This document shows, one piece after another, positions 7,111 through 61,903 of a stretch of 64,000 nt of DNA. Source of the stretch: Schmidtea nova (Eukaryota); NCBI GenBank assembly GCA_044892505.1, contig CM097883.1, positions 175,398,001 to 175,462,000 on the forward strand, given 5' to 3'. Every line of letters begins with the position of its first letter. Positions within the stretch are counted from its first letter, which is position 1. The notes below the pieces were generated by a model. It was given only the letters and a program-made list of their open reading frames with translations. It made no database searches and was not told the origin of the DNA. The position numbers and the translations under genes were made by a program.

Positions 7111-7444
7111 ATTTTAATTAAATTAAATTCTTCATTTGATGATAAATTTTATTCAAATTAGTTTATAACCATTCAAATTTGAAAATCTTGATTTTCAATC
7201 AAACCAGTATTGTACGATTTGCAAGTATCATCAAGCTTTTCATTTTCATTTGCAGGAATTTCATTTTTGTTAAATTCATCATTAAATGTCACAGCTTTTT
7301 CTTGTAACTCTAATTTTTAGTTTCTTCAACACTATCAAATATTATTTGAAATGGAAAATATTTACAATTTACATTTAAAATATTGCCATCAATATACATC
7401 AAATAATAATTAGAATCGTGACTAATATTATATTCATTCTTTTG

Positions 7445-8879: not shown

Positions 8880-9090
8880 CAAACATAATTGATAAAGATT
8901 TTAAATATGTTGAGGCAAATGGTCACCGAACGAACAGTTTAGAAAAATTGTATAATGCGTTATTAACAATTCAGCATACTTCAACGATTTTTTTCAGTTT
9001 CAGGCAATTTTATGACCAAAATCAGGAGTCAACTAAATATGAAAAATGTAAATAGTCTAGTATTTTTAAAATACTATTTTTTAAATAAAG
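8880..9090 (+). pseudogene. hAT transposase C-terminal dimerisation domain relic
   Basis: LEKLYNALLTIQHTST...FSVSGNFMTKIRSQL...NSLVFLKYYF. Confidence 0.6.
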
Positions 9091-23775: not shown

Positions 23776-24220
23776 CTTTTTATTTTTGTTATTGTCGGCA
23801 ATAATGCCTTTAAAATAATAATAATAAAAAGTCAAAAATTGTATTTTAAAAGAAAATCGATTCGGAATAAAAAAATTACTAAGGAATAAAATAATATAGA
23901 AAATAGAAACGGAATTAACTATAGAAACGAATAGGAGTAAAGACGATCAAAGAAATCGCTAAAAATTAATTTATGAAAATAATAAAGAGACAAAAAAACA
24001 GAAGAAAACAAACAAAAGGAAACTAAAGAATTAATTGAAGAAAGTAATCTTTAAGAAAAGTTTGAAAATATATTACCACAAAAAACTGAAGGTAATAATA
24101 TCAAAGAATAGAAAATAAAATCAAAGACACTTTATATAATTAATTAATCAAATATTCGTGAGTAGTGTTGAATTTTATTATATTTTGTTAAATAAACGTT
24201 TTAATCAAGTTATTGTTGAG

Positions 24221-24671: not shown

Positions 24672-26197
24672 ATGATACGCATGGAAAATCGGCAGAATAG
24701 TTTTCAGAATTCAGTCGTGGAGAAAACAGTTTCTCAGAGACAAAAAGATCAACTGTTACATGGTGGATACAGACTATGAAAGGTAGAATTCTTGCAGGTG
24801 GAAGCATTTCATAGAGGTGTTCCAGTAAAAATTTTTCTGGTCGTATTAAAGTTAGTAAATCTGATGAAGTTGTTGTGATAGAGCACAATGATGCACCAGA
24901 TCCGGATAAAAATGAAGAAACCAAGGTTGTTGCAGAAATTCGTCGACGAGCCGTGACAACCGTGGAGAGGCCTCGTCAAATAATCCAACAGAGCACAGCG
25001 TGAATTTTATTGGAAGTAGCCAGTCATGTTCCATAATATACAGCTTCTCAACGGACCATTCACCGACAACGAAAGAGATGCGCTGTTCCATAAGGTCCGG
25101 TGAATTCACTAGCTGGCATCACCATTCCAGATCAACTTAAACAAACAACGAAGAATGAAGATTTTGTGATGTGGGATTCTGGTGAAAACGAAGCGAAAAG
25201 AATTCTGATATTCGGTACTATGTCAAATCTGGATCTGCTTCAACAGTATAATCATTGGTTCATCGATGGAACATTCAATGTGGTACCAACAATCTTCTGT
25301 CAAGTGTTTACTATCCACACATTGATCGATGGTTCTGCATACCCTCTCGTTTATACATTATTGACAGACAAATAACAAGAAGGATATGAGCGTGTTATTC
25401 AAGAATTGCAGCCAACTCTAAATCCGGCGAGTATTATGTCGGATTTTGAGAAAGCCAGTCAGAATGCCTGTTCAACCGTATTTCCTAGCTCGCAGTTAGT
25501 TGGATGCTTGTTTCATCTCGGACAGAATCTCTGGCACAAGGTCCAAGATTTAAATCTTGCAACAGCATACCGTGATGAGAAAAATCTAAGAATGTATGTC
25601 AAAATGATGTTGACTCTAAGCTTTGTTCCTGCTGTTTTCGATGAATTGGCAAATGACTGCCCTCTTCTAATGGCACTATTGATCAACTACTGGGAAGATT
25701 CATACATAAGCCGACAACGAAGGGGCCTATGTGAAAATCCAAGGTTTCCTTTACAATTGTGGAATGCTCGTGCTCGCGTCATCGACAACCTACCACGTAC
25801 CAACAACTCCGTCGAAACATGGCACCGATCTTTTTGATTGCCAGCACCCGTCCGCCTACAAACTGGTTGAACAATTCCGTCAAGAACTGGATCACTACGA
25901 ATTGAAGATCGAAAGGTTTCGTTCAGGAATGAGGCAGCCAGAAGGATCCAAGTTAAAATATGTTCGCCAAAATCGACGACTGCAGGCTTTGGTCCCAACA
26001 TATGGAACAATTTTAGTGGGAGATTAAATAATTTAGTAAATTATTTAGTGTGTAGGTAAGTTAAGTGTGTTTTGAAATAAATATAGTAGATTTGAATTGT
26101 ATTTTATTTTACTTTTTGTGTGGCTATCTCGGCGGATTTTGAACTGTCGCGTTTTTTATTGCGCACATTTGTCCTTCACGCAATTGTGTGGGTGTCC
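24672..26197 (+). mobile_element. MULE DNA transposon with near full-length transposase pseudogene
   Basis: FLYWCH-like N-term; WFIDGTF, YPLVYTLL, MSDFEKA, GCLFHLGQNLW, PRTNNSVETWH, HPS across 24672-26027; GC-rich subterminal repeats ending GGTGTCC at 26197. Confidence 0.88.
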
Positions 26198-28559: not shown

Positions 28560-31310
28560 AACTACACAAGTTCAGCAAGACCTTCAGTTATTTTGTTTTA
28601 TAAAAAATTATTTGAAATCGTATTTTGCAAAATATGTAGATTCCAGAAAATTGGCGCAGCAAAAATTATGTTTTTGAATTCGTTGAATGTGTTGAAGTAA
28701 TAAAAAAAATTAATAAAATTCAAAATAAAATTATATTTATAACTAAATGAAGGAGAGATGTGAAAATCGAGTCAGGTATAGAATTGATAGTGTAAAGAAA
28801 TAAAAAGAGAACAAAGGCGTCAGAAAGTGTATCATTACGGGTGAAAAGCACAAAAATGTGAATTGTGAAAAATCGATAAAAGATTTAAATGTTCGAATTG
28901 AAATCTGGAAAATTGGTCATGGGGGAACAAGTAGCGAGGAATAACATGGTGATAACGGAATTTTCAGAAAGTGTCAAGAAGGGTGCGAAAAGGTACTTAG
29001 GAGTTAAAAACAAGAAAATGAAAGGAATTAATTAATTAATTAATTAACAAATAGAAAGAAATCCCGAGCTGGGTAAACAAAGAGAAAAGTAAACAGAAGG
29101 AAAATTTAGGCCCATTATCTGGTCACAATGATTAATGGGAGTAGGTCAAGAAAAGATAATATGTATAGAGAAGTCCAAGGCAGGCTATTAATTATTTTAT
29201 TTGGTCGGACCATTCCGGATGACAGCCGAGGCAGAGATGTGGAGCTGAATATCGGAACTGAGATTGGCTCAGCAAAACCCATTTGTCATCCAGATTTAGA
29301 AGAGTATAAAAGGAAGGGGAAAATCAGAACAAATTGGCAGTTTGCCTCAGCTAGGGACACGACGGAATTGAACTTAGAAAAGAGGAAAGGTAGAAAATAG
29401 GAAGTTAGGGAAAAAGAAAAGATAGAATCAGGAGATATTGAGGAAAACGAAAAGAGAATTAAATCGGAAGCGAATCTAATAAAATAAAGTAAAGAGGTGA
29501 ATCAAAGGAAGCTATTGACTAAAAAGGTGAATATTATTATAACTAATTGACAAAGAATCAATACCGAGCGGAGGATCGGTCAGACTCATAAAGACTTAGT
29601 TATTGATTATTTTGGGTTGAACGATATATTGTGTGATTCAATATACGTTAGGTAGTTTATTGTTTTGTTATTTACGATTAAAGGGACACGAGGAGTCAGA
29701 GAGTACCAACTCGAATATTAAAACCCAACAAATGTATCAATCACGTTTTCCAACAAGAAACTTTTAATGAAATAAGAATGGCACAATTTCATTGTTTTAT
29801 AGTGGATGAAAGCACTGATGTTTCAGTTAACAAAATGTTAATAATTTATATAAAATACCGGTTTGAATTTAATTACAAAACTGTTTTTGCTGGCATAATA
29901 CAGTTAAATTCATGTGACGCAAAATCGATTGTGGAGTCTATAAAATGTTTTTATAAAAAACTTAATCTGGATATGCAAAAGATGGTAATGTTAACATCTG
30001 ATGGAGCTGCAGTAATGTTGGGAGCTTATAATGGAGTTCCAGCACTTTTACCGCGAGAAACTTGCCACTTGACAGCTCAGCACTGTGTTGCTCATAGAGA
30101 AGATTTGGGAATCGATGATGTCTGGAAGGGTATACTTCTTATATCTCAAGTAGAAACGTTATTGCGAACTGTTTTGTACCATGTTCCATCGTTCATCTGT
30201 TAAAAACATCATTTTGAAGAAATGGCAAATCTAATGGATTGTGAAGCTTTGATGTTCCGACCTCTTATTGAAATACGCTGGCTTTCTCGTCATTTTGAGA
30301 TTATTCCGCTTATTCGAAATTATGACGTCTTGGTAGAATATTTCAAAGAAAAAATTGATAATTCAAATTCTGTTGATCGAACCGCGAAATACTGCTTTGC
30401 AGCTTTAAAAAATAATGTTAATCGTGTAACCTTGATCGCATTAAATGATGTTTTCACAAAATTGACAAAGTTATCAAAATATTTACAAAAAAGTGTTTTA
30501 TCACCAATGGAAGAGCATCAATATTGTAAATCGATCACAAAATTAAGAAGTCAGTACCTTGGTGATATAGTTTATTGGAGTGAGGATGTGAAAAAAAATC
30601 TCGAAGATGAAGGTAATAATAATATGCAAAAATTGTCTGGGATAATTCTATTTATTGAGAAATTATGCCACAATTTGGATAAAAGATTTCCTGATAGTGA
30701 CATGGACCTTTGGAATGCTTTTGATCAAAACGGCATTGTCAATACATCAGATTTTAATTATGGTGATGAAAATTTAAAAAAAAATAATATTGAAATATGA
30801 AGATCTCATCCCAAATATGAATAATAAAATAATAATGGAAGAGTATAAAGATTTAAAATATTTATTTACGGAAAAATTCAAAAATAATGGTCGTAATTTC
30901 AATGATCTACTTCAATTGGTTCTTCGTGAAGACTGTTTTCAAAATATAAAATATTTGTTTGATATTTGTGGAACCTTTCAAGCGTCGAGTGCTGATTGTG
31001 AAAGAGGTTTAAGAATGATGAATTTGATTAAAACAAAATTTAGAAATAGATTGGACGCTAATCATTTGAGTAACTTAATAAGAATAAAATCACACTTAGT
31101 TTCGGAAAATATTATTGATCTGGATAAAGTATACCATTACTGGAAGCGCAATAAAGACAGACGAGAAAAAAATAATCATGAACTTATATAAAAATAAATT
31201 ATGATTTTTCAAATAAAAAGAATTCCTAATTGCTTAATTTTTATTTAATTTTTTAATCGTGGCGCAATATTTTTTTTCTGCTCAGCTAAAAAAAATTAGA
31301 GGGAGCGTTG
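28560..31310 (+). mobile_element. hAT-B (DUF4371/ZNF862-like) transposon, frameshifted transposase
   Basis: VDESTD, SDGAAVMLG, HCVAHR, RWLS, SSADCERG...KTKFRNRL in ORFs 29778-31191; right TIR TTAGAGGGAGCGTTG ending 31310; left TIR not found. Confidence 0.88.
28690..29730 (+). mobile_element. Solo LTR (1041 bp) with AATG target-site duplication
   Basis: TGTTG...CAACA termini; AATG at 28686-28689 and 29731-29734; removing it restores the hAT-B frame (EFVECINHVFQQETFNEIRMAQF); TATAAAAG ~29305 and AATAAA ~29480. Confidence 0.85.
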
Positions 31311-47093: not shown

Positions 47094-48091
47094 TGTTCGG
47101 TTCGTATCAGTGGTTTACGACGAACACAAAAAAAAATATATATATTTGATTTGATTATCGGACTCCAAACGATAATCCGCTTATATAATTATAAATAAAA
47201 TATATGTTTTAGGTTGGGTGTAAAGAAAACAAAACCTATTCTTTTTAATAAGATTTATTGCGATTTATGTATAACAATGTACAATATATTAAAATAAAAT
47301 AGCTGCAAAGCAAAAGTTAGAAAATCGGTTATTCAAACCGTCCTCAGAGTTTAAGAACGAAAGCTGGACCTAAAAGGCTCAACAGCTCCGACTAAATGAA
47401 AGGACAAAAGATGAGGGCTTTCCCGGTAGTTTAATCGCGATAGTGACAACCCAGAAATGGTTGTCACTGTGACCTAATAATTTCCCTTCTAATAATTTAT
47501 TATTTAACGAATTTACTGAAGGGGAAAAATAGTAATATAACTATTTCCCCGTGATCGATTTATAGAATTAAAGCAAACTAGAAAATTTACCAGCTAATAA
47601 AGATTATTCCAATTTCGGGAAATTATCACAAATGAAATTCAAGCTAAACTTCTCGTAATACTTCTGCCGTAAAAATTAATTTCTCCAATTCACAAATCTG
47701 TAAAACTTAGATTCTAAAATTCACTTCTGTCCAATTTATGTTTTGTAATTAGTTTAAATAGTAAAGTACTGCCTACACGGCCACGCACTAAAAGTTTACT
47801 ATTATTTTTAGTAATTCTTATTTACTATTTTTAATCTAAATTTATTATTATTATTACTATAATTAGTGTATATCTATTTAGAGCAGTTATTAATTACTAT
47901 ATTTATTTCTTTTCTATTTATAGTAATTATTTGTTACTAAAATTACTAATTAAGTATTTAATTATTACTATAATTATTATCTATCTATTTATAGTAATTC
48001 TTAATTGCTATTTATATTTATTTATTTATTTATAATATTTAATTACAAATTTATACAAAAACCCGAGATCCCTTGATCTCGAACCCTAACA
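47094..48091 (-). repeat. 3' LTR (998 bp)
   Basis: By eye identical to 60903-61903 except for a 1-nt shorter A run and one fewer TA unit. Confidence 0.97.
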
Positions 48092-48103
48092 TGTCTTCCC
48101 CCT
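48092..48103 (-). promoter_or_regulatory. Polypurine tract
   Basis: Minus strand AGGGGGAAGACA abutting the TGTT of the 3' LTR. Confidence 0.85.
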
Positions 48104-48396
48104 AACAAGATTTTCGTCCCGAAAATTAAAGCGGAAAAGGCAAGAAGGTTACGCAGCCAAAAATTAAAGAAAATAACAACACATACATATATACATAGAA
48201 TGCACTTGGCCAATAAAATAAAACAAAAATGAGTCTCATAAAACACATAATACATAAGTAATGTTAATCACAATCGATATCAAATAATAACTGTCTGTAA
48301 GCGTTGGATTGTTGATCGCATAGCCGAAATGCTAATTGTTTGATTGATAGTTGTCATAGCTTATAGCTAGACCTTGGATTGAACGTAGCAGAAATG

Positions 48397-50433
48397 CTAG
48401 TTATCCTTTGCGAATAGGTTTTGAGCTGCTCTCTTGCGAATATGCGCTTGCTCGTTCTTGATGCGATCTTCCACTATATCTGGTCTATAACTGACCACTA
48501 ATGTTTCGCGTGTTTCGACTTCCTTATATACCAAAGACGAAATCACGTATGATTTTCCGTTGGCCTCCAATACGCCATAGTAAGGGAAGTTTGAAACTGA
48601 TGATTGGTGTACCGGTTTCCCGTCGTATTCTTTTATCCGAGGTACCCAATTTCTCTCTGGTCGCTGCCAAAAACTAGGGTCTTCATTGTCCAAATCCTGG
48701 GGTGTCTTTGCTGAATTTCCTGTTCCAACGAAATCCCCTTCTCTTATAATAATAGGTTCGCCCTTAACCTCAGGAATCTGTTCCATATCGGGTGGAACGA
48801 ATGCTGTTTCGATTAAATCTTTGTCTTCCGTCGAGAGGAGATTTGGTACTTTCTTCTTGATCTTTAGATCTTGTAACCTTACAACAGGTTCTTGACTTTT
48901 CGTTGGGGGTGACTTTTCTACTGAAGTCAATTTTTTAAAAGTCTTAGTAACTTTTTCCAAGAGCTTGTTCTCTTTCTTTGGTGGATTTTCTGGCACGATC
49001 TTTGTAATTGTACGGCTGTCTCCGTGTAAAGTTAAACGCATCTCTGTTTGCTCCTCACCCTCGCTTTCGCAGGTGGCGTAATCGTCTTCATCAGCTAAGG
49101 ATATAGCTGGAGGGGATAGTGATTCTTCCTCAACTATCTTTTGCAATTTGGTTGATAATGGTTGTTCCTGGGGTAAGCTCTCAATAGCTTTCCTTTTACT
49201 CGTTTCTTGTGGCTGTATTGTATGAACCATTTTGACTTCTGATGTAATTGTCCCACTACGATTACCTGGGGTAATGTCATCTACCCAAACTTCTCTCAGT
49301 TTAAGGTAAATATTACGTGTCGTTTCCACGTCATTTTCCGTTTTCAGATCTGAACGGTTTAGTTCTTCCTTTTCGAGAATTGACTTTGATAAATACGCGA
49401 GTCGATAATGTCCGTTACATTTCTTTAGTTCTCTCGCTTCCAGGCATTTTGCTGCTCCTAGTTCCCTAATGCCCAAAACTCGTTGAGGGTGTAACTGGAC
49501 TGCTTCCAAGAAATCGTTGACTTGGAGACCTATTAGAATTTTCCCGTCACATAATTTTCTAATACGGTCTGCACAATCCTCTCCATCAAATTGTCCAATG
49601 ATTTCTTTTTCGGTCATACCATGCGCGTGCGATTGGTAATGTTTGACCTGGTTTCTGGGTGTAACCACCGTGTTTAATATTAAATCACCACAGTAGTTTG
49701 CTACCGAAACAGCCACCAAAGCTGGCTTTAAATAATCTCGCAAAGTTGCGTAATGCGCTGCAACAAAAATTGACAATCTATCTTCTTGATTGGGGTGCAG
49801 ATTCATCCGAACAAAGGATTTGAATGATTTGAGATCGTTCTCATTCACATTATAGGTCCAGGCAGGCTCATTTTTCCACAATGATTGCACTGCCTTGCTG
49901 GGTTCCAAAATCTCTAATACCACAATAGTATTATATCCGTCACATTGGATGGAGATATTCTTTTCTCTGCCATCTCCGTTACTAATTTCTAGAGTTGATT
50001 CTGGTTGAAGTAGGATGGGTCCTGTGGCTCCTGCCATGAAGATTGTAAAGGGTTTATTGATCGCGTGAATCAGGAGATGGTGAGTAAATGTTGATCTGTT
50101 AAATTCCGCCATGTGTTCAGTCAACCGGGTGTTCTCACGGCTGGTGATTGTGACTATGCACATTTGTCTCTTAGGTGATCCAAGAAACTTAAAATTGTTC
50201 GGGATGCCGGTGCAGTGCCCGTAATACCAATAGCGACGACCTTTCCGTGCCTCTGCGGATATCGCTTTTTCGATGTTTCGATAAATCAGTTTTTCCTTCT
50301 GTATTGTTTGCACATCGATAGTGCTGTAACGCTGCTTGTATTGTGACACTTGATGCTTCATATCTGAAAGAAAAATAATTAACGTTAATATCAGATATAC
50401 TGATATGCCAATATTGGCTAAAAAGAAATGCAT
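48397..50433 (-). CDS. ORF3 accessory protein (probable start ATG 50361, 654 aa): degenerate DEDDh exonuclease plus other domains
   Basis: ALVAVSVANYCGDLILNTVVTP...HGM...GKILIG...L..L...IL...ENDVETTRNIY follows the REX4/ISG20-type pattern; TTTTTCTTTCAG acceptor 2 nt before ATG 50361. Confidence 0.85.
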   Translation of the reverse strand: MHFFLANIGISVYLILTLIIFLSDMKHQVSQYKQRYSTIDVQTIQKEKLIYRNIEKAISAEARKGRRYWYYGHCTGIPNNFKFLGSPKRQMCIVTITSRENTRLTEHMAEFNRSTFTHHLLIHAINKPFTIFMAGATGPILLQPESTLEISNGDGREKNISIQCDGYNTIVVLEILEPSKAVQSLWKNEPAWTYNVNENDLKSFKSFVRMNLHPNQEDRLSIFVAAHYATLRDYLKPALVAVSVANYCGDLILNTVVTPRNQVKHYQSHAHGMTEKEIIGQFDGEDCADRIRKLCDGKILIGLQVNDFLEAVQLHPQRVLGIRELGAAKCLEARELKKCNGHYRLAYLSKSILEKEELNRSDLKTENDVETTRNIYLKLREVWVDDITPGNRSGTITSEVKMVHTIQPQETSKRKAIESLPQEQPLSTKLQKIVEEESLSPPAISLADEDDYATCESEGEEQTEMRLTLHGDSRTITKIVPENPPKKENKLLEKVTKTFKKLTSVEKSPPTKSQEPVVRLQDLKIKKKVPNLLSTEDKDLIETAFVPPDMEQIPEVKGEPIIIREGDFVGTGNSAKTPQDLDNEDPSFWQRPERNWVPRIKEYDGKPVHQSSVSNFPYYGVLEANGKSYVISSLVYKEVETRETLVVSYRPDIVEDRIKNEQAHIRKRAAQNLFAKDN

Positions 50434-50547
50434 AAATCTCGATTTACGGGATCTACTTATGCTGTAAGTTAATGCTACTCGGAGCTCAACAAGATTATAG
50501 ATTTTAATATATATATAAATACAAATATGCGATTTTATCTGTAATTG

Positions 50548-53500
50548 TCATAATCTCGTCATCATAATCCCATCAACCGACTCAATAGCCTGATTGAAGA
50601 ATAATTTCATCCAAACTCCCATTGCTATCAATGTAGTGATCATAGCTAATACTGCTGACGTAATAATCCATACCCCAATGGGTAATTTTCCCAAGTGAGT
50701 AATGGGGTTTACTTCATTAATTCCACACTGACAACTTTTAATATAGCTTTCTGTTGATACCGTTGGTTTTACCATTTTCAATCCTTTCAATCTCTGCCAT
50801 ATTGCAGGATGAATGACGTAACTTTCTTTCCGTATCAAGGATGTAACTGATTTCGTTGTCGTCGATGATTGAGGTAATTTCAAAGAGATTACTTCATAAA
50901 ATACCTCATTCCATTCATCGACTCCGGGCTTTTGTTTATTATTCATATAAGTGATATGAGCTTCCCACTCCACTGAGCTGTTCCACTTGAGATTTTGTTT
51001 CTCAATATCTTCGTTTAGCCACAATTCTTGTACTATTTCCTTGTCGGAGTGGATTTCTATCTTTACTCCATCCACTCCTTGTTTTGGTTGACTGAAGGTA
51101 ATCATACCTTGTTGGATATTTATCCTAACTTTCCTTTTGAAATCTGCTGTCTTCAGCTTCCATTGTGACTTGGAAAAATCTGACCATCGTCCAAACATAA
51201 AATGTTGAACAAGTATATCTAATAAATATTCCTTTTCTGCTCGTAAGTCCTTTATGACTTTCACTCTTGTGTTTGAATCCAATGTAAAATGGAAACAACG
51301 TCGTTCACAAAACGAGAACTTGAATTTGGTATCATTTTCAGCTAATGATATTATCCTAAATTCCTGGAAAGATCTTCTGAATGCGAGATCTTGGATTTGT
51401 ACCGCTGTTGGAACAAATGTTTTTACACATGATATGAGGCAACTTATTATTACCAAAAACGTAACTGATTTTGGCACGCCTCTTGATCGTAATGGATATC
51501 GGTCTGAGACTGTTTCTGACCCTTTATTCTCCTTTTTCTTAATCGAATCTTTCTCCGTGACCGCAACCTTCTTGCATCTGTTAGCATGTACCATTATTGG
51601 TTCAGCTTTTCTATTTGCTACTAATTGCAAGATTAAATTCGTGTCTGTGGTTCTCAAAACCTCATACGGTCCTTTGAAGTTTCTCATTAATTTAGGTGAT
51701 AAGCCCTTTTTATTATAATGGCTTTCCAACATCACCTTGTCTCCAACTAACATGCCATGTCCTTTGGCTTTCTTATCATGATAATCTTTCGACGCTTCCT
51801 GACTGAATTTTATACTAAGACCTGCTTTTGTCCATGCTTCTTGCATTCTTTCTCTCATTTCCATGAGATAATCCTCTTGGTCTAAATACTGCGTTGCTTT
51901 TGGGAAAAACAACAAGTCTATAGGCATTTTACTTTGCCTTAAATACATGAGATAGAACGGCGTTTGTCCCGTACCCTCATGAACAGCATTTCTGTATGCG
52001 AATAAGCATGATGGAATATGTATATCCCAATCCGTTTGCCCTGAATTTACGTATGATGCTAGCATATTTGCGAGCGTTCCGTTAAATCTCTCTACCAATC
52101 CGTCTGTTTGTGGATGATACGGAGAGGTATTCAATTTTAAAATGTCGAAATAATCATTTATTCCTTTTAACAGATTACTCATGAAATCTGCTCCTCTATC
52201 TGTTAGTAGTTTTGTAGGTACTCCATACCTAAAAACAATTTGCTCTACGAAAATCCTGGCTATCGTATCTGCCTTGTGATTCGGTATCGGATAAGCCTCC
52301 GGCCATTTTGTCAGGTAATCGCAAAATACCAATATGTATTTGTTACCACTATTTGATTCTTTGAATGGCCCTAAAACATCCATTGCCGTCATTTCCATCG
52401 GTGTGGATGGTACTGGCATTGGTTTCATTGGTACATGAGGTTTCTTCCCCGTATTTCTTCTGGTGATACAGATCTTACATGTCTGACACCATTCCTGTAC
52501 GTCTTGTTTGATTGTCGGCCAGAAAGATTTCTGCTTCAACCTTGACAATGTTTTCCTGGAAGACAAATGCCCTCCCAGTGCTCCATCATGATATTGTAAC
52601 ATCAAAGCTTCGCGATATTTCTTAGGGACCATTATGACATTATCCCTTACATCCACATATTTGACTAATCCTTCTTCTAAGATAAATTTGTCTCGATTTT
52701 TCTCCCAATATTTATTAAATTCCGTCGGTATGAACTTTGCTTCTAAAGCCTGTCTGATTTGGTTTATCTCTTCATCCGATTGTTGTGCTGCCATTAAATC
52801 CGCGAGTCTGTTTGCTTCTCTTGTAAGTGCGAAGATTGTTCCTTCTAATCTTCCTTCTTTGACATCTTCTGCTTCATCACCCTGGTCCATTCGAGAAAAT
52901 GCATCTGCATTCCCATTTTGATGTCCTTTTCGGTAATGTATTTCGATGTCGTACGGCTGCAAGATTAATGCCCATCTAACCAATTTTGATGTATCCATAG
53001 TATGCTTTGTTAACCACTGTAATGGTCTATGATCCGTATACACAATGATCTTTCGACCCCATAAATATGTCCTGAATTGGTGTATAGCATACACAATTGC
53101 TAATGCTTCTAATTCGATAACTGCGTAATTCTTTTCATGTGGTTTTAATCCTCTGCTAGCATACGCTATGGCATATTCGTCTCCTAGGTCATCTCTTTGA
53201 CCTAACACAGCACCAATACCCCGAGTGCTGGCGTCTGTCATGACCAAAAATTGTTTCTCAAAATCTGGGAACCGTAATATAGGAGGTTCCACGAGCATCC
53301 TCTTTAGCATATCAAATGCTTCCTGTTGCTCTTTTCCCCATACAAATTTGACATTTTTGCCCTCTAATTGTGTTAAAGGAAATGATATTGCTGAAAAGTT
53401 CCTGATGAACTTCCTGTAATATCCCACTAAGCCCAGAAACCCTTTAATATGTTTGACTGTCTTTGGCTCTGGAAAATTCTTTGCTTTCTCAACATTTGCT

Positions 53501-55068
53501 GGATCTGGTTTTACTCCATCCTTCGAGATAATGTGACCGACATAGACTACCTCTGATTCGGCCCATTTACATTTCGATGGTTTTACCTTAAGATTTGCAT
53601 TAATTAACCTTTTGAATACGTCCTCTAAATGTTCTAAATGTTTTTCCAAATCTGGAGAAAATACTATGATATCATCTATGTATACCATTGCATGATGAAC
53701 ATCCATTAACATTAGATTCATGGCTCTTTGAAACGTTGCCGGCGCTCCTGTGAGACCAAATGGCATTACTGTATATTCGAAGTGTCCAAGGCTTGTAGAA
53801 AAAGCCGTAATTGGTATTGTCTCCTCTTTTAACTTGATTTGGTAAAATCCCTTCTGAGCATCCATCACTGAGAAATATTTTGAATTTCTCCTGCGTCCGT
53901 AAATGTAATCCAGTAATGGTAATGGGTGACTATCCTTGCAAGTTGCTTCGTTTACCATTCGATAGTCGTTGCATAGTCGTACCGTTCCATCCTTTTTGGC
54001 CACCACTATCATTGGTGACTGGTATGGTGATTTACTATGCCTGATGATGTTATGTTTTAACATCAGTTTTACCTGCTTATCGACAGGTTCTTCCAAGCTA
54101 AACGGAATTCGATACGGTCTCAGTTTTATTGGTTTCGTATTGTTAAGAACAATTTCATGTTCCAACAAATTCGTCTTTCCCAAATCATATTCGTGCTTGG
54201 CGAATACCTGATCATATTTTCTTAATAACATGTTGACTTGGATATTCTCTCTTCGTGAAAGAGCTTTACTATTTGCCGTTGGCGCATCATAGTACTCGAT
54301 GTCTGGTTCTCTATTCTCTGCCTTCACTGTCAGGACAGATCCCCCAATCGGTAATTGATCCGACTTTGATACTCTCCCTACTCTTGTATCTGGATACAAT
54401 TTTAATGGTTTTATATCTAAATTGGCTACCCGAATTGGTATTCTGCCATTTTCAACTTTACCAACGCTATGCGTAATTGGTAGATTATATTTTGCTGAGA
54501 ACCTTTCATCTGGTTCGAATACTACTTCTCCTTCCCACTGTTTGCTAGTAGACACGAAACATACTGTTTCTGCTCTGGGTGGTATTATCATCGTATGGTC
54601 GATGAAAACTGTATCATCATTATAAACTTTTCTTTTCTTACCGATTGATCTAACTAACAATCCGGTAGCACAGTCAAATACAACTCCTTTTAATCTTCTT
54701 AAAAGATCCATTTCTAGTAGACATTCTACTGGACAAGTTCTCATGACTATAATATCATGACGAAATTCTTGGTCACATAGCTTGATGTTGCAAGCTAGAG
54801 TACCGATAATATTCAAGGATGTGCCTGTAGCACCTGTTAGCGAAACTCTTGAGGTTTCCATTGATTCCAATTCTTTTTGATTTAATAGTGTTGCCTCTAT
54901 GATAGTGCCGTCTGCTCCTGAATCTATCACTGCATTAACTGTGTGTCTGTTTATTTTTATCTTTATCATGGGTTTCTTATCCAAGTTTACCCCATTTGCC
55001 ATCAAAATAGTAGCATGCGTTATCCCGATGGTATTTGCTCTGAATTTCTCTGCTTCATCTGCTATCAC
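50548..55068 (-). CDS. pol: Pol polyprotein: aspartic protease, RT, RNase H, integrase, plus C-terminal type I membrane protein
   Basis: IDSGA; RLCNDYR, MPFGLTGAPATFQR, YIDD; TDAS...ELEALAI; HHCC, DVLGP, TDRG, DGLVERFNGTL, GPY; frame opens at GTG right after a TGA, first ATG at 55002. Confidence 0.97.
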   Translation of the reverse strand: MIADEAEKFRANTIGITHATILMANGVNLDKKPMIKIKINRHTVNAVIDSGADGTIIEATLLNQKELESMETSRVSLTGATGTSLNIIGTLACNIKLCDQEFRHDIIVMRTCPVECLLEMDLLRRLKGVVFDCATGLLVRSIGKKRKVYNDDTVFIDHTMIIPPRAETVCFVSTSKQWEGEVVFEPDERFSAKYNLPITHSVGKVENGRIPIRVANLDIKPLKLYPDTRVGRVSKSDQLPIGGSVLTVKAENREPDIEYYDAPTANSKALSRRENIQVNMLLRKYDQVFAKHEYDLGKTNLLEHEIVLNNTKPIKLRPYRIPFSLEEPVDKQVKLMLKHNIIRHSKSPYQSPMIVVAKKDGTVRLCNDYRMVNEATCKDSHPLPLLDYIYGRRRNSKYFSVMDAQKGFYQIKLKEETIPITAFSTSLGHFEYTVMPFGLTGAPATFQRAMNLMLMDVHHAMVYIDDIIVFSPDLEKHLEHLEDVFKRLINANLKVKPSKCKWAESEVVYVGHIISKDGVKPDPANVEKAKNFPEPKTVKHIKGFLGLVGYYRKFIRNFSAISFPLTQLEGKNVKFVWGKEQQEAFDMLKRMLVEPPILRFPDFEKQFLVMTDASTRGIGAVLGQRDDLGDEYAIAYASRGLKPHEKNYAVIELEALAIVYAIHQFRTYLWGRKIIVYTDHRPLQWLTKHTMDTSKLVRWALILQPYDIEIHYRKGHQNGNADAFSRMDQGDEAEDVKEGRLEGTIFALTREANRLADLMAAQQSDEEINQIRQALEAKFIPTEFNKYWEKNRDKFILEEGLVKYVDVRDNVIMVPKKYREALMLQYHDGALGGHLSSRKTLSRLKQKSFWPTIKQDVQEWCQTCKICITRRNTGKKPHVPMKPMPVPSTPMEMTAMDVLGPFKESNSGNKYILVFCDYLTKWPEAYPIPNHKADTIARIFVEQIVFRYGVPTKLLTDRGADFMSNLLKGINDYFDILKLNTSPYHPQTDGLVERFNGTLANMLASYVNSGQTDWDIHIPSCLFAYRNAVHEGTGQTPFYLMYLRQSKMPIDLLFFPKATQYLDQEDYLMEMRERMQEAWTKAGLSIKFSQEASKDYHDKKAKGHGMLVGDKVMLESHYNKKGLSPKLMRNFKGPYEVLRTTDTNLILQLVANRKAEPIMVHANRCKKVAVTEKDSIKKKENKGSETVSDRYPLRSRGVPKSVTFLVIISCLISCVKTFVPTAVQIQDLAFRRSFQEFRIISLAENDTKFKFSFCERRCFHFTLDSNTRVKVIKDLRAEKEYLLDILVQHFMFGRWSDFSKSQWKLKTADFKRKVRINIQQGMITFSQPKQGVDGVKIEIHSDKEIVQELWLNEDIEKQNLKWNSSVEWEAHITYMNNKQKPGVDEWNEVFYEVISLKLPQSSTTTKSVTSLIRKESYVIHPAIWQRLKGLKMVKPTVSTESYIKSCQCGINEVNPITHLGKLPIGVWIITSAVLAMITTLIAMGVWMKLFFNQAIESVDGIMMTRL

Positions 55069-55414
55069 TCAATTTTGGATTATATTCCTTGAATTTAGCT
55101 TTTATTGCTTCTAACGACTCGATAGGATACAGTTTCCCTTCATTTTCTAACGATAATGATATGCTTTTACCTGTTTCTCGAGCATCTTTGTCGGGAATTT
55201 GTTGATGTTTAGAAATGTACATTTTGTTTCTTGGTATGGTTAAAGCATAACTTGGCTTGCCTTCTCCTGATGTCTTTTGAAACTCTGGCGATTCCCCCTT
55301 TGGTGCTGTTGGTAAGCTTCTAAGATATGGCAATTGCATATATCTTGGGCTTCTTTTCAATCTAGGCGATGTTGTATTTAATTGCAAATTTCTGGTCTGC
55401 ACTATCGTATTCAT
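55055..55414 (-). CDS. 119-aa linker ORF overlapping the end of ORF1 and the start of pol
   Basis: Overlaps ORF1 by 53 nt and pol by 14 nt; preceded by a TTTCAG acceptor; no recognisable domain. Confidence 0.45.
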   Translation of the reverse strand: MNTIVQTRNLQLNTTSPRLKRSPRYMQLPYLRSLPTAPKGESPEFQKTSGEGKPSYALTIPRNKMYISKHQQIPDKDARETGKSISLSLENEGKLYPIESLEAIKAKFKEYNPKLSDSR

Positions 55415-58400
55415 CTTCTGAAATCATACTTTTGTCGAAAATCTGTTTTGTCGCTTCGTAAGGTGGTTGATAATCTCGATATTTCATTTTCCTTAATTGA
55501 TGATTCGGTTTTTTATTGTAGTTTCTTTTTCGACTTCTACTTTGCCTCTGAACTGTATTAAGAGAGTCTCCATTACCTCCTCCTTCCGAATTGTTATCGT
55601 CCCGATAACTTGTATTACCCTCCATTTCGATTCCAATAATCTCGTGTTTTACCAAGCTTCTCTGTTTGATTGTCTTTATTTCTTTACGATGATGTTTAAA
55701 CAATGCAAATTCCGCACACATAGGACACAATCCTAGTATCAACTTCCAAGACCATCCACCGATTTTGAATATGCTGTATGTGGAAATTAATTGTGTTATT
55801 ATTAACTTTAGAATTACGAATATTGCATATATTCCGGAGCAGCCTGCCACGAATATACCAAAATTGGTAAACCTTCCCCATATTTTCATCATCACATTTT
55901 TAGCTGCTTCTTTATAATGATCTGGACCGAATAATAAATTGTAATCTGGTCTCATTTCGTTTGCTTGGTAAATTGTTCTTATGATTTCAGTGATACCTCT
56001 TTCTCTTACTTGAGGGAATAGCAATGTCTGTCTTGCCTCCTCAATGTCTGCTGGAGTGTAAATTCCTCCTTGTGATAATTCATCGAGTGATTTAAATTCC
56101 ATGTTTTCCTCGAGTTTCGTGACTTCTAATGTTTCCACCTTTCTATTAGATGGTTTTCTGTCAGGTAATGAGATCCATCTATCATTTACCTTGTATAACG
56201 GTGATATTGCTGGATTGCAAATTGAAGGTTGAGGCTTTTGTTTTTCATCCAAAAGTCTCCTCGTTACTGGCATTACAAATCGTATTTTGTTTTGATATGA
56301 CACTGGTAATTCTAGAGTACATTCGTTATACCGTGTTAATTGTACCTCTATGGGTTGACATTGATAGCTGTATATAGCTTCCCCCATAATTCTGCCAAAC
56401 ATTCCATCTTCTAGCAACATAGGTGTCACTAGATCCGGATTCACGATTGATATCGCTAATCGATTTCGAACTATTTCGCGATTTAGTTTGCAATCATTGA
56501 GTATTACTTCCTGATACATTTCCTGCATTTGTCCTTGCAGATCATGATATAAATAATCTATTTTATTATTTATATAGTTCGTGATTTTGATATCCTGGCT
56601 GTGAATATTCTTGGCTTTTTGGATAAATGTTTTTGACAAATATAATCCTTTATAGTTGGTCTCGTACACCACTTTTCCGCATTTTGTCTTCTTATCTTTT
56701 CTGACAAATCTGATTGCATCTTTCTTATCTTCTGATACTAATACTAGAGGTGTGATTTCCTCACTAATATCCTCTTTTTGCTGTTTGTTGATCCTTTTCA
56801 ACGTCTTTTCTTTATCCCAAATTCTTTCTCTTTTGGGTAAATCTCGATACTTTGTCCCGTTCAACTTATGGAAATTAATTTTCTTTAGTAATGACAATTC
56901 GCAATGGTCTAGTATTTGATCGTATAATAATGTAATGACCCCTGTTCTGCAGCTTCCAAATTTCGCAAGGCACTGAGGGTGTGCCATTAATCTTCCTGAT
57001 AATACATCGAAAGTTCCTTCGTATTCTCTTAATTCGATTGAATAGTCCTCGATATCTACGACAAAACTTACCAACTCCGATCCGCGAGTTTTCTTTCTTC
57101 CCGTACAGGTACCATCTGATCCGATTGATCCTCCTCGTGTAATGGTTACTCCCAGTGTTTTTCCTACTTCCGCGGCGATGGTTACCTCGTTATCGATTCT
57201 TAAAGTACCTTTTCGAAAGGCGTCTAGACAATCCTCTGGTAATATGTTGACAGGTCTAGGTATTAGAGTGGCTGATAGAAAAGCTGTATAGCTGTGTGAA
57301 CCACAATAATATTCAAATGTCGCTCTTTGGACTCTACATTCTCTTATCTTAGTTCTGAAGAATTCACTTTCTTGGTAGACATAGTATTCGACCTTTTCTC
57401 CTGTTTGGACTTTCTCTGGATATGCCTCTTTGCACTCAATTGCATCCACGAGCGAATATATCCGAGCTAACTTTGGATCACTGCAATCAAACGCTGTCAT
57501 TGTGTTTGTCTGTTTCATTATCCCCATCATTACTAAAAACATTAATATCATATTCGTCATATTCCCCATTCCTCCATTTCCGAGGTGGTTGTTATTCATA
57601 ACCTCTTCCACAAATTCATATCGTGGTTTATGTTTCTCCTCTTCCCAGAAATTATTTTCACTCATCCACGTTCCGAGATAATGCTCCGTTATCTCCGTGA
57701 TCTGGTCTATTTCTCGATTAATAAGTTTCTTCTCATTGCCTGCGCGGGCTAAGGCATCTTGAATCAACATAGATAATGCTGTCACTATTTTTCCTTTAGA
57801 TAACCCATCTTGTATGAGTGTCTCTAACATACTCTGTATCTCGTTTTGAGGTACCATTTTAGGTAATCTCCTCATCGTCTTCGCGATTGACTGTGTCACT
57901 TTATCCACTTGAATTCCTTTAATCCGAGTGATCTGCCATTCCGGCTTTAATATTCCTATGATCTGTTTTAATCTCTTCCATGTCAGAGATTTTTCTGGTA
58001 TATGTACTCCCTCGTCTCTCATATCAACATCCCTGGCTATTCCTGACAGGGTTTTCATCTGAACCTGTTTAATGGTTTCTTGGTTTAATTGCTCCGTTGG
58101 GGGAGGTTTCATTTGATCTTTCCTAGGCCTTCCTCGCCTATCTTTCTTTGTCTGCCATGCTGGCCTGATAGTTTCTACCGCCTGAGAAGTTGAAGCTCCC
58201 ACGTTAGTTTCCTCATTATTGAGTCTGATTTCTTCTTCTCCGTGATTATCGGCATCGATATCTACATTAAATGGTTGTGTTTCGACGTTACCAGTGACCA
58301 TTTCATCTGGTAACCGTAATGCTGACCATTGAGATTCAGGTGGCTCTACGGGAATGATTGCTACCGTTGTAGTTTCAAATGGTAGACATCCCACATCTAC

Positions 58401-60821
58401 TAAATATTCATCATCATCCACTTGTCCTCCATGAATCATAATCAAGAATATACCGGTAGTCTGCCCAGTATCTATTAAATCTTTTCTCAACGTTATCACT
58501 TTGCTAAAACAACGATATAATCTCGTCATGGGTTCTTTTCCCGCTATTCGAATGTCTAAAGTTATCATGCCTTGTCGGTGTGCTTGATGACGTATTGCTG
58601 TTCCATTTTTCCTCATTAACATTTTTATTTCTGTTTGAAAAGAACTAGTTTCTTTTACTACAGGTAGTAATATAGGAATTATACTCTCCAATGATTCTAC
58701 TGGTATGCGCAATACCAACATCCAGTCTAATATTTCCTTGATTGTTTCTCCATCCCTCGGAGATTTCTGCAACTCTATCTTTAGACGTTGCTCTATTTGT
58801 TGGACTTCCTCCAACTGTGCAATTTCCATTTGTGTGAGTAGAAACACACTGTCTTGATCCACTACTGGGACCGATATTCCTGTCAGTTTTGTTGTGAGTT
58901 TCGTTACCCTTCCTGGTAATACACCATTTTGTAGTAGTGTTTCCCCAACTACTAACTTTTCTCCATATAGATAAAAATCATATCTATTATGTTTCAATTT
59001 CATCATTGTATCTGACAACTTATCTGTTCGACATCTTACATTCATGTCGATGTTAAACTCCTGCTCCTGAGGAAGTTTTATGTTTAAATGCGAATCCTGA
59101 AGATCCCATTCATGCTCCATTGCTGTTCCTATCTTTCGTAGGATTCTGTGTATGTCGCTATGATACTTTGGATCATCTTCGACCTGAGATATTAACTGTA
59201 ATATCTTTCCAATTTCACTATTCTTGATATCACCTTGTGATAATTTCTCTAATTCTCTAGTCAGTCTCTGCTGATACTCATATCTGGAATCCACCAGTTT
59301 TAAACATTTTGCTAGGGTATCTGACCCTTTCTTGGCCTTTGTTTCCTTGAACAAAGCCTGGTCGAACTCGCTCAGTATGGTACTCATACTGGGTTCGTCA
59401 TCATTATCAGAATTTGTTTCTGATTCTATTACCTCATGATTCTCGCTGCTGGAATCCATGGGTTCACTATTTCCTTGCTCGTCTGTGTAAGCATCATAAT
59501 TTTTCTCAGCTGAAATCATCAAAACTGTTCCTTGCCCAACTGTGTGAGCATCATCGCTTTCCTCAATGGGATTCATTATAACTGTTCCTCGCCCATCCAT
59601 GTGAGCATGATTTTTCTCAGCTGAAATCATAAAAACTGTCTCTTGCCCAACTGTGTGAGTCTCATTCTTTTCCTCTATTGTATTCATCAAAACTGTTCCT
59701 CGCTCATCTGTGTGAGCATGATTTTTCTCAGCTGAAATCATAAAAACTGTATCATCTCGATCCATTAGCCGTGCTAATCGATTTTTCTCCTCCTGGATTT
59801 CCATTTCCAGTTGTTGCAAATACGTCAATTCTTTATCGTGATTGACCATGAACGTAGTTTTTGGCTTGCTGATATTACCACCATTGGTAGTCCTATTATT
59901 CGTATTATTACTCTGATTTTGAGGACACGACCTCAGGATATGCCCGAATTTTCCACATCCGTGGCATTTTATCTTTCCTGATGAATTTACATCATCCCTT
60001 TTTATATTAAAATTCCCATTCGTTGGGAGATTCCTAACTCTACAAACGGAAGCAACATGCCCTCTGCGTTTGCATTTATCACACTGCAAGTTCGTGACTC
60101 TACAGTTCTCAACACTATGATTATTCATACCACATTTAGTACACTGAATACCCCTACGAGTATCAGCTACCTTCTTACTGTGGCAATCTTTTGATATATG
60201 CCCCTTCTTATGGCAGTTAAAACATTCAATTGCTGGCTTCTCATTATTTACCATAAATGAGGTAGCCTTTTCTAAGCTGCTTTCGATTACGACAGCTTTT
60301 CTTGTTAATTCCCAAAAATCATCTCCCGTGTGGAGAATCAATGCATTTCTCATTACATTTGTGAATCCAGCTAATAATTGGTCTTTAACCATAGCTTTAG
60401 TTGCATCATTCCAGGTAGTTCTGAGCCCAAATGCTCTTTCGGCTAATAACAATAATTGATAGGAAAATTCTCCTACATGCTCATTGGCATTCTGTTTTCT
60501 ATGGTAAAATTGTTGTCGGAAAATTCTGCTTGAATCTCCCGGTAATATTCTAGCCGTTAGTGATTCTCTCATCTTTTCCCATGTAGCTGGTTTATCTGCT
60601 GCTGGTAACGCCATAATATCATTGTAGTTTTCCCTTGCCATACCCTTAAGGTAAATTGGCAGTCTTTGTATCATTATTGCATCTGGATACCCATAGGCCT
60701 TTGCCATCTGATAATACTCTGACATAAACTCCGGAAATTCCCCTGGATCTCCGCTAAATGCCTTGACAGGTAAAGCGGGATATCTAGCAAAAACATTATT
60801 CTCTTCAGCCATGTCCTCCAC
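55362..60821 (-). CDS. gag: ORF1 (1819 aa): Gag capsid, 4 CCHC knuckles, spacer with UBL-like domains, chuvirus-type glycoprotein
   Basis: Capsid FSGD...Q..NEHVGEF; CX2CX4HX4C x4 at aa 200-299; internal hydrophobic signal aa ~1088-1108; AFDC, YCGSHS, GEAIYSYQC...ECTLELPV; TM at aa ~1651-1675. Confidence 0.95.
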   Translation of the reverse strand: MEDMAEENNVFARYPALPVKAFSGDPGEFPEFMSEYYQMAKAYGYPDAIMIQRLPIYLKGMARENYNDIMALPAADKPATWEKMRESLTARILPGDSSRIFRQQFYHRKQNANEHVGEFSYQLLLLAERAFGLRTTWNDATKAMVKDQLLAGFTNVMRNALILHTGDDFWELTRKAVVIESSLEKATSFMVNNEKPAIECFNCHKKGHISKDCHSKKVADTRRGIQCTKCGMNNHSVENCRVTNLQCDKCKRRGHVASVCRVRNLPTNGNFNIKRDDVNSSGKIKCHGCGKFGHILRSCPQNQSNNTNNRTTNGGNISKPKTTFMVNHDKELTYLQQLEMEIQEEKNRLARLMDRDDTVFMISAEKNHAHTDERGTVLMNTIEEKNETHTVGQETVFMISAEKNHAHMDGRGTVIMNPIEESDDAHTVGQGTVLMISAEKNYDAYTDEQGNSEPMDSSSENHEVIESETNSDNDDEPSMSTILSEFDQALFKETKAKKGSDTLAKCLKLVDSRYEYQQRLTRELEKLSQGDIKNSEIGKILQLISQVEDDPKYHSDIHRILRKIGTAMEHEWDLQDSHLNIKLPQEQEFNIDMNVRCRTDKLSDTMMKLKHNRYDFYLYGEKLVVGETLLQNGVLPGRVTKLTTKLTGISVPVVDQDSVFLLTQMEIAQLEEVQQIEQRLKIELQKSPRDGETIKEILDWMLVLRIPVESLESIIPILLPVVKETSSFQTEIKMLMRKNGTAIRHQAHRQGMITLDIRIAGKEPMTRLYRCFSKVITLRKDLIDTGQTTGIFLIMIHGGQVDDDEYLVDVGCLPFETTTVAIIPVEPPESQWSALRLPDEMVTGNVETQPFNVDIDADNHGEEEIRLNNEETNVGASTSQAVETIRPAWQTKKDRRGRPRKDQMKPPPTEQLNQETIKQVQMKTLSGIARDVDMRDEGVHIPEKSLTWKRLKQIIGILKPEWQITRIKGIQVDKVTQSIAKTMRRLPKMVPQNEIQSMLETLIQDGLSKGKIVTALSMLIQDALARAGNEKKLINREIDQITEITEHYLGTWMSENNFWEEEKHKPRYEFVEEVMNNNHLGNGGMGNMTNMILMFLVMMGIMKQTNTMTAFDCSDPKLARIYSLVDAIECKEAYPEKVQTGEKVEYYVYQESEFFRTKIRECRVQRATFEYYCGSHSYTAFLSATLIPRPVNILPEDCLDAFRKGTLRIDNEVTIAAEVGKTLGVTITRGGSIGSDGTCTGRKKTRGSELVSFVVDIEDYSIELREYEGTFDVLSGRLMAHPQCLAKFGSCRTGVITLLYDQILDHCELSLLKKINFHKLNGTKYRDLPKRERIWDKEKTLKRINKQQKEDISEEITPLVLVSEDKKDAIRFVRKDKKTKCGKVVYETNYKGLYLSKTFIQKAKNIHSQDIKITNYINNKIDYLYHDLQGQMQEMYQEVILNDCKLNREIVRNRLAISIVNPDLVTPMLLEDGMFGRIMGEAIYSYQCQPIEVQLTRYNECTLELPVSYQNKIRFVMPVTRRLLDEKQKPQPSICNPAISPLYKVNDRWISLPDRKPSNRKVETLEVTKLEENMEFKSLDELSQGGIYTPADIEEARQTLLFPQVRERGITEIIRTIYQANEMRPDYNLLFGPDHYKEAAKNVMMKIWGRFTNFGIFVAGCSGIYAIFVILKLIITQLISTYSIFKIGGWSWKLILGLCPMCAEFALFKHHRKEIKTIKQRSLVKHEIIGIEMEGNTSYRDDNNSEGGGNGDSLNTVQRQSRSRKRNYNKKPNHQLRKMKYRDYQPPYEATKQIFDKSMISEDEYDSADQKFAIKYNIA
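59440..59760 (-). repeat. In-frame 111-bp (37-aa) tandem repeat in ORF1, ~2.5 copies
   Basis: CTCAGCTGAAATCAT at 59505, 59616, 59727; protein TVFMISAEKNHAH..RG / TV(L/I)MN.IEE...HTVGQ. Confidence 0.95.
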
Positions 60822-60881
60822 AACTTTTGTCTTTTTAGGAGCTATTTTGTATATAACAATATGTTCACTGATAATAATTGT

Positions 60882-60899
60882 ATCACGTCGGGCTCACCA
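60882..60899 (-). promoter_or_regulatory. Primer-binding site, tRNA-Trp-like
   Basis: Minus strand TGGTGAGCCCGACGTGAT, 3 nt from the 5' LTR; differs at one position from the tRNA-Trp PBS TGGTGACCCCGACGTGAT. Confidence 0.85.
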
Positions 60900-60902
60900 A
60901 AA

Positions 60903-61903
60903 TGTTCGGTTCGTATCAGTGGTTTACGACGAACACAAAAAAAAAATATATATATATTTGATTTGATTATCGGACTCCAAACGATAATCCGCTTATATAA
61001 TTATAAATAAAATATATGTTTTAGGTTGGGTGTAAAGAAAACAAAACCTATTCTTTTTAATAAGATTTATTGCGATTTATGTATAACAATGTACAATATA
61101 TTAAAATAAAATAGCTGCAAAGCAAAAGTTAGAAAATCGGTTATTCAAACCGTCCTCAGAGTTTAAGAACGAAAGCTGGACCTAAAAGGCTCAACAGCTC
61201 CGACTAAATGAAAGGACAAAAGATGAGGGCTTTCCCGGTAGTTTAATCGCGATAGTGACAACCCAGAAATGGTTGTCACTGTGACCTAATAATTTCCCTT
61301 CTAATAATTTATTATTTAACGAATTTACTGAAGGGGAAAAATAGTAATATAACTATTTCCCCGTGATCGATTTATAGAATTAAAGCAAACTAGAAAATTT
61401 ACCAGCTAATAAAGATTATTCCAATTTCGGGAAATTATCACAAATGAAATTCAAGCTAAACTTCTCGTAATACTTCTGCCGTAAAAATTAATTTCTCCAA
61501 TTCACAAATCTGTAAAACTTAGATTCTAAAATTCACTTCTGTCCAATTTATGTTTTGTAATTAGTTTAAATAGTAAAGTACTGCCTACACGGCCACGCAC
61601 TAAAAGTTTACTATTATTTTTAGTAATTCTTATTTACTATTTTTAATCTAAATTTATTATTATTATTACTATAATTAGTGTATATCTATTTAGAGCAGTT
61701 ATTAATTACTATATTTATTTCTTTTCTATTTATAGTAATTATTTGTTACTAAAATTACTAATTAAGTATTTAATTATTACTATAATTATTATCTATCTAT
61801 TTATAGTAATTCTTAATTGCTATTTATATTTATTTATTTATTTATAATATTTAATTACAAATTTATACAAAAACCCGAGATCCCTTGATCTCGAACCCTA
61901 ACA
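60903..61903 (-). repeat. 5' LTR (1001 bp)
   Basis: See 3' LTR. Confidence 0.97.

Follow-up and report, generated by a model that had tools for sequence, protein, structure and literature searches.

The accessory open reading frame that follows pol in an envelope-carrying Ty3/gypsy element of Schmidtea nova, hereafter called ORF3, encodes a protein predicted to join a 2OG-Fe(II) oxygenase fold without metal-binding residues to a REX4/ISG20-type DEDDh exonuclease domain deprived of most of its catalytic residues, and this protein has been under purifying selection during the spread of the element. The features of ORF3 and of its element are collected in table 1, with positions in the window, by which we mean the whole stretch of 64,000 nucleotides that was analyzed. 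Full-text literature searches returned no description of a fusion between an oxygenase fold and an ISG20-type exonuclease (Repbase entries and figures lay outside their scope and may already label ORF3), and none appears in the available portions of PMC13524379 (text and supplements), PMC7968707, PMC13238120 and PMC8297929. Accessory DEDD nucleases in rotifer elements, an AlkB-type domain in orchid Gypsy elements and the gag-BCL2-env-pol layout of Burro are known already; to the known captures of DEDDy type ORF3 adds an independent capture of ISG20/REX4 type, together with a case of a double pseudo-enzyme.

Table 1. Positions of ORF3, its domains and the parts of the carrier element in the window
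Feature	Position	Strand	Remarks
5' LTR	60903..61903	-	LTR pair 99.6% identical over ~1 kb
Primer-binding site	about 60882-60899	-	Follows 5' LTR
gag (CCHC knuckles), linker and gB-type env in a single frame	55362..60893	-	ORF list and Pfam
pol frame: protease, RT, RNase H, integrase, then ~300-aa extension ending hydrophobic	50548..55068	-	
Splice-acceptor-like T-rich tract ending CAG	50364..50390	-	2 nt before ATG; putative use
ORF3 (P0001), accessory protein of 654 aa	48397..50361	-	ATG at 50361, stop 48397-48399
2OG-Fe(II) oxygenase (AlkB/prolyl-hydroxylase) fold without metal-binding residues, aa 11-156	49894..50331	-	Model, Foldseek, VIA and motif census
Linker with family motif S-F-x-R (aa 182-185)	49789..49893	-	Conserved in dead and intact members
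REX4/ISG20-type DEDDh exonuclease domain, aa 192-366	49264..49788	-	Four of five catalytic residues replaced
C-terminal tail, aa 367-654, acidic, proline/lysine-rich	48400..49263	-	No Pfam match; pN/pS 0.083
Polypurine tract	48092-48103	-	Adjoins 3' LTR
3' LTR	47094..48091	-	99.6% identity to 5' LTR

Domains and active sites of ORF3

The first-pass annotation of this DNA had recognized a real reading frame but had ended it at 49285, whereas ORF3 continues for a further 289 aa to 48397; the motifs that it had picked out, namely RRYWYYG, CIVT, LTEH-M-A, LLIHAINKPFTIFM, PILLQPESTLEI, SIFVAAHY and DLKTEND, are all present in the translation. No Pfam family was found for ORF3, and a word-index protein search with it gave no match at E<=0.001 among 3343 candidates. 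As a single sequence in phmmer, ORF3 matched ISG20L2 (7yw5) over aa 214-360 with E=3.8e-5, and a profile of 59 family rows matched ISG20L2 with E=2e-30, followed by ISG20, SDN1, PolC and PAN2. The AlphaFold model of aa 1-369, built from the family alignment, contains two domains and reaches a pLDDT of 94.3 and a pTM of 0.90. Its nuclease domain has ISG20L2 and ISG20 as top matches in both Foldseek (E 2e-9) and VIA, the latter giving Z 18.6 for ISG20L2 (rmsd 2.5, 158 residues aligned) and Z 18.4 for ISG20, with the next unrelated DnaQ rows at Z <=14.6. Human ISG20L2 and ISG20 and cellular REX4, which are the closest solved structures and sequences for this domain, keep D-E-D-H-D and are without an N-terminal oxygenase-fold domain; ORF3 differs from them on both counts.

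Alignment with cellular REX4-like proteins places A201, H203, F284, L339 and D344 in the five catalytic columns, of which a single one is thus kept. The D-x-E of Exo I is replaced by A201 and H203, the acid of Exo II by F284, with D283 lying one place before, and the His of Exo III by L339, while D344 is retained. The alignment, the profile and the fold match therefore bear out what had been read from the motifs, a dead DEDDh nuclease of REX4/ISG20 pattern without the Exo I D-x-E and the Exo III His, and add the loss of Exo II, which had been left unstated. By this loss of residues, 3'-5' nuclease activity is likely to be absent from the window protein. The same residues are found in all near-identical copies reading through the nuclease domain (28 of 30), except for H203Q in one, so that the dead nuclease is a trait of the family and not decay of the window copy. 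Moreover, all nine rows from the related subfamilies of the same genome are without the Exo I acids and without the Exo III His. Dead members retain the non-catalytic motifs of the family (P235-R236, D259, G297-I-R-D and W359-x-D361), and the net charge of their nuclease domain is similar to that of intact members (+4.6 vs +3.5).

Folded alone, the N-terminal domain (aa 11-169) gave a pLDDT of 93.0. All the rows listed for it by Foldseek are double-stranded beta-helix proteins, including PHD2, ALKBH8, cupins, PpnP, Ofd2 and AlkB (E from 3e-4), and after re-scoring of the top 1000 of these matches with VIA all 50 rows listed are 2OG oxygenases, with Z 9.6-10.9, 125-140 residues aligned and rmsd 3.0-4.3 for most rows. 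The VIA alignments span the whole domain (model residues about 1-146), comprising the double-stranded beta-helix core and the N-terminal strand-helix extension. The scores of ALKBH6 (Z 10.9), ALKBH5 (10.8), Ofd2 (10.5), P4H (10.3), AlkB (10.3) and PHD2 (10.2) are tied, bacterial and viral prolyl hydroxylases stand among the top rows, and the rows listed all lie within 1.3 Z. The first-pass suggestion of a possible dead AlkB-like domain thus holds at the level of the superfamily, that is, a 2OG-oxygenase fold without metal site, but AlkB is not singled out over prolyl hydroxylases, and no match to any AlkB Pfam family was found among 59 family rows. Both an RNase H-like and a double-stranded beta-helix fold, whose absence was to have counted against that reading of the protein, are predicted. 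A search of the ESM Atlas with aa 1-190 gave no usable match. The alternatives of a cyclic-nucleotide-binding or a plain cupin fold were rejected, as no such protein occurs in the 50 VIA rows and the cupins listed by Foldseek align over a shorter length.

With strands assigned from the secondary structure of the model, none of the 63 relatives having the N-terminal domain shows an in-register HxD, and the two that carry H-x-[DE] near strand II have it out of register. The window protein reads H83-M-A at strand II, H83 being replaced by a hydrophobic residue in most relatives; its last strand, TIVVLEIL, has no Arg, and the barrel contains neither a His/Asp triad nor an Arg pair. The positions conserved across the family are instead Y27, I-P-N (53-55), H99 and E150. 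Judged by these residues, the domain is non-catalytic, also in members with an intact nuclease.

Copies, selection and relatives

Copies 98-100% identical to the sequence studied here occur in at least 40 places of the genome (40 of 143 candidates scored), and further subfamilies of ORF3 in the same genome show 40-58% protein identity to that of the window. ORF3 is open over its full length in 26 of 30 copies. Among the variants shared by at least two of 29 other copies, synonymous and nonsynonymous changes number 22 and 5 in aa 1-190, 14 and 2 in aa 191-365, and 43 and 13 in the tail, corresponding to pN/pS values of 0.061, 0.041 and 0.083 and to binomial p values of 4e-11, 6e-8 and 2e-18, respectively. 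Neutral evolution of ORF3, which had been set beforehand as the outcome that would speak against a function, is therefore not what the shared variants display (pN/pS 0.04-0.08). Within the tail, a block at aa about 550-640 (window about 48440-48710, minus strand) is common to the dead subfamilies of the genome at 30-41% identity and has no match in the intact-type families.

A HMMER search among 1.84 billion 50% representatives retrieved 104 relatives of ORF3, and the ten whose records were consulted are proteins without a name that come from assemblies of metagenomes or runs. We scored 68 rows, consisting of the window protein, nine other ORFs of its genome, two from the metagenomic locus L113 and 56 of the 104 HMMER hits; of the other hits, 12 were used as a cellular outgroup, and 36, either fragments or additional REX4-like proteins of cellular type, were set aside. 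When both D and E are allowed at Exo II, all five catalytic residues are kept in 37 of these 68 members and 0-2 of them in 31 (one of these dead rows ends before Exo III), and no member keeps 3-4. Such an all-or-none pattern of residues would fit a switch of function rather than drift. RNase_T (PF00929) was matched in 22 of 59 rows, the intact relatives carry H, not Y, in Exo III, and an intact relative led to RNase_T clusters in the ESM Atlas.

Intact-type ORFs are found at the same position after pol in other gag-env-pol families of the genome (84 matches to P0020; L095, L097, L099 and L101), the RT of which is 53-54% identical to that of the window element. A metagenome scan added four loci from 239 pattern matches. 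One metagenomic locus (L113:3-10371) contains pol, a second aspartyl protease and ankyrin repeats, followed by tandem ORF3 paralogs, the former dead (7268-8740) and the latter intact (9043-10371). Another locus (L093:1909-3711, minus strand) encodes an open ORF3 homolog of 601 aa that retains one of five catalytic residues and branches among the intact members; no pol was found beside it in the 19 kb searched, which contain only distant RT fragments, and this copy is solitary, host-kept, or a deleted element.

In a quick tree with the REX4-like outgroup, the window protein belongs to a cluster of 26 rows, all dead (support 89), and the deepest branches are intact; nuclease activity is thus likely to be ancestral. 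This tree requires four changes of catalytic state, three of them forced by starred branches. Repeated independent loss of catalysis is not claimed here, since a single dead clade is not rejected by the AU test (p-AU 0.617), the tree obtained being 7.3 log units higher.

Possible functions of the protein

We tentatively favor, at a little below even confidence, the view that the ORF3 protein is a non-cutting RNA binder. The cellular outgroup and the intact members (37 of 68) suggest descent from an active 3'-5' exoribonuclease, in which the oxygenase-fold domain may already have been a non-catalytic binding module that helped the nuclease to engage its substrate; the lineage of the window would then have lost the chemistry and retained the binding, and the dead protein might now shield the RNA of the element, or serve as a decoy, in the face of RNA decay and small-RNA silencing by the host. 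Nucleic-acid enzymes are found in both parent folds, namely ISG20L2 and SDN1 on one side and ALKBH5/6/8 on the other. Dead DEDD domains kept for RNA binding are described for Maelstrom and EXD1 (PMC5408684), which are host piRNA factors with the DEDD fold in common with ORF3 and present a functional analogy to it. The ExoN of arenavirus NP, a viral DEDD nuclease described as used against host defence (PMC7968707), is a functional analogy as well, in this case with an active viral enzyme. Against RNA binding, the hydrophobic residues (A, F, L) that partly fill the old active site could close the pocket for the RNA 3' end.

Since its fold is equally close to prolyl hydroxylases and to AlkB, the N-terminal domain may bind protein rather than RNA. 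A somewhat unlikely reading is that the dead domains serve as a scaffold or decoy for host or element proteins, such as RNA-decay factors, piRNA-pathway factors or an intact ORF3 paralog, which they would tune or block. The tie of prolyl hydroxylases, which bind protein substrates, with AlkB enzymes agrees with it, and so do the dead and intact tandem paralogs of L113 and the presence of both families in one genome, as would be the case for pairs of enzyme and pseudo-enzyme; these elements also carry host-meddling domains, Bcl-2-like and, in the description of Burro, ubiquitin-like as well (PMC6431247). However, the window element has the dead form only, and its close relatives have preserved the basic residues that surround the nuclease domain. 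That ORF3 works in the particle or the replication complex, as RNA chaperone or as aid to dimerization or packaging and without any anti-defence role, seems unlikely to us: its location after pol is kept in all families whose context was read and its long acidic/basic tail is also under strong selection, but ORF3 stands outside the Gag-Env-Pol frame and is thus without a built-in route into particles.

Residual or rewired catalysis, in which D283, D344, H203 and their neighbours would bind metal and sustain a weak nuclease, or H99 and E150 would provide the barrel with a new site for small molecules, appears very improbable. The position directly ahead of Exo II is indeed repeatedly acidic in the subfamilies of the window, and E150 and H99 are conserved, the latter in 23 of 31 dead and 33 of 37 intact rows; yet Exo I, the holder of both metals in DEDD enzymes, is without either acid, in four of six close rows E takes the place of the D of Exo III, whose His is gone, and the barrel is devoid of triad and Arg pair. 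We give almost no credence to a neutral relic, namely a gene that was captured and now decays in an element of recent origin. The single-copy variants (pN/pS 0.26-0.45, with 3 stops in 29 copies) might suggest it, their pattern being as for decay after insertion, but the overwhelmingly synonymous shared variants refute it; besides, the dead state is common to subfamilies 40-50% identical, with open frames in many copies, and the model folds at pLDDT 94.

The RNA-binding reading of the window protein can be widened, rather speculatively and with considerable doubt, to a whole family of retroelement accessory proteins, widespread and undescribed, in which a dead 2OG-oxygenase domain is fused to an ISG20/REX4-like nuclease. 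These proteins would counter small-RNA silencing in stem cells in two modes: intact members would destroy trigger or guide RNAs, dead members would cap and shield RNA 3' ends or jam host trimming enzymes, and some elements would pair both. Nucleases of ISG20/REX4 type are an antiviral group in vertebrates, and transposon-encoded proteins countering RNA silencing in animals are, to our knowledge, hardly known. The two domains form a compact unit of 365 aa, predicted to fold with confidence, that occurs naturally in a single genome in an intact and in a dead version, each of them under selection or open in many copies; the role of the accessory nucleases of retroelements is thus directly testable.

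Expression, carrier element and comparable systems

ORF3 starts 187 nt downstream of the pol stop and might be made from a separate spliced RNA using the acceptor before its ATG, spliced-leader trans-splicing having been considered as another route. The acceptor-like sequence TTTCAG/ATATG reported before ORF3 in the first-pass annotation is indeed present (G at 50364). In six of eight intergenic stretches, which represent three lineages with RTs about 50-59% identical, a T-rich tract ends in an acceptor-like AG at a distance of 0-8 nt from the ATG that follows; the seventh stretch is a decayed copy having the AG without ATG, and the remaining one (L113a) is without AG. The CAG is unchanged in 59 of 60 loci searched, these loci partly overlapping. 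Because the element has 10 matches to a loose acceptor pattern in sense orientation, one of them 54 nt upstream (50418), it is this conservation that constitutes the evidence, not the motif itself. In contigs from four runs, of unspecified kind, coverage is even and none of the matches listed has a joint at 50363, which has no bearing on splicing.

The element itself is a Ty3/gypsy gag-env-pol element of 14.8 kb on the minus strand (47094-61903), with a target-site duplication of 4 bp, CGTC, on both flanks. LTRs, a polypurine tract, a primer-binding site that we take to be tRNA-Trp-like, the order protease, RT, RNase H and integrase in pol, and an env between gag and pol are all present, as in the GAG-ENV-POL errantiviruses with gB-type env; its env matches Pfam Monjiviricetes_fusion with E=2e-90. 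It is a recently spreading, envelope-carrying element of a known kind, the classification of which is unchanged by ORF3. Gene order and env type are those of the platyhelminth GAG-ENV-POL errantiviruses with HSV/gB-type env (Chary and Hayashi, eLife 2026, PMC13524379); compared by eye with the supplement of that paper, the env of the window is closest to Smed_errantivirus_4, and the families with intact ORF3 resemble Smed_errantivirus_1/2. The word exonuclease is absent from its main text and seven supplements, as is AlkB from its main text, and its passages on these elements mention no ORF after pol.

The rotifer precedent invoked in the first-pass annotation stands insofar as accessory exonuclease ORFs do occur in LTR elements: Juno, Vesta and the Terminons carry a DEDDy-type ORF3 (Rodriguez et al. 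2017, PMC5408684), which in bdelloid Juno and Vesta likewise follows the pol of Ty3/gypsy elements as an ORF of its own and is described as coding for a 3'-5' exonuclease of the DEDD superfamily, for which a spliced message is expected. It is, however, a different capture, of DEDDy/RNase D type. The rotifer protein is set apart by its description as RNase D-like, with the invariant residues intact and no oxygenase-fold domain reported there, whereas that of the window is of REX4/ISG20-type DEDDh, dead, fused to a dead 2OG-oxygenase fold and carried by an element with env. Furthermore, no clear departure from neutrality and no gain in copy number are described for the rotifer ORF3s (PMC5408684), so that a benefit cannot be transferred from this precedent. 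The capture of a 2OG-oxygenase fold by Ty3/gypsy elements has a parallel in orchid elements with an AlkB/2-ODD m6A demethylase domain (PMC9289625), but that domain is described as functional and recently acquired, whereas in the window family the metal ligands are absent family-wide and the fold is fused to an exonuclease.

A further likeness is found in Burro/GYPSM1 (Arkhipova and Yushenova 2019, PMC6431247), described as having Gag, a BCL2-like region, env and protease in one frame together with accessory ORFs, and ankyrin repeats that are shared with L113. However, Burro exceeds 30 kb and carries MATH, BIR and ankyrin domains, whereas the ORFs of the much shorter window element contain none of these Pfam families and have only the gag-BCL2-env-pol layout in common with Burro; the text of section 7 of the Burro description names no exonuclease or oxygenase ORF. 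In the linker between the Gag knuckles and env of the window element (57510-59393, minus strand) there is a weak Bcl-2 match with E=0.12, which improves to E=0.0043 in L096 (362-1651), and a ubiquitin-like stretch, recognized by eye only, precedes this region, a layout as described for Burro in a much smaller element.

The long frame of the window copy is broken between env and protease (about 55050-55400) and runs continuously from env to the end of pol in copy L109. Past the integrase, pol extends for about 300 aa (window 50551-51468, minus strand, and L103:4067-5014), where a hydrophobic stretch is accompanied by a segment that looks rich in beta strands and, at the C-terminus, by a membrane-like one; this extension has no Pfam match, evolves fast (about 25% identity between subfamilies) and is possibly, from its sequence, a second membrane protein cut from the polyprotein. 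In gag, a short in-frame tandem repeat with units of 54-57 nt follows the zinc knuckles (59438-59716). Elsewhere in the window there are DNA-transposon remnants with a type B polymerase, a hAT dimerisation domain, a MULE transposase and DUF4371 (1012-1797, 22894-23946, 25376-25837 and 29682-30800). Finally, the element is matched at high identity in four runs of one study (X1-X4) bearing two organism labels (A and B) and differing greatly in depth, which may reflect a mislabel, carry-over or a shared element.
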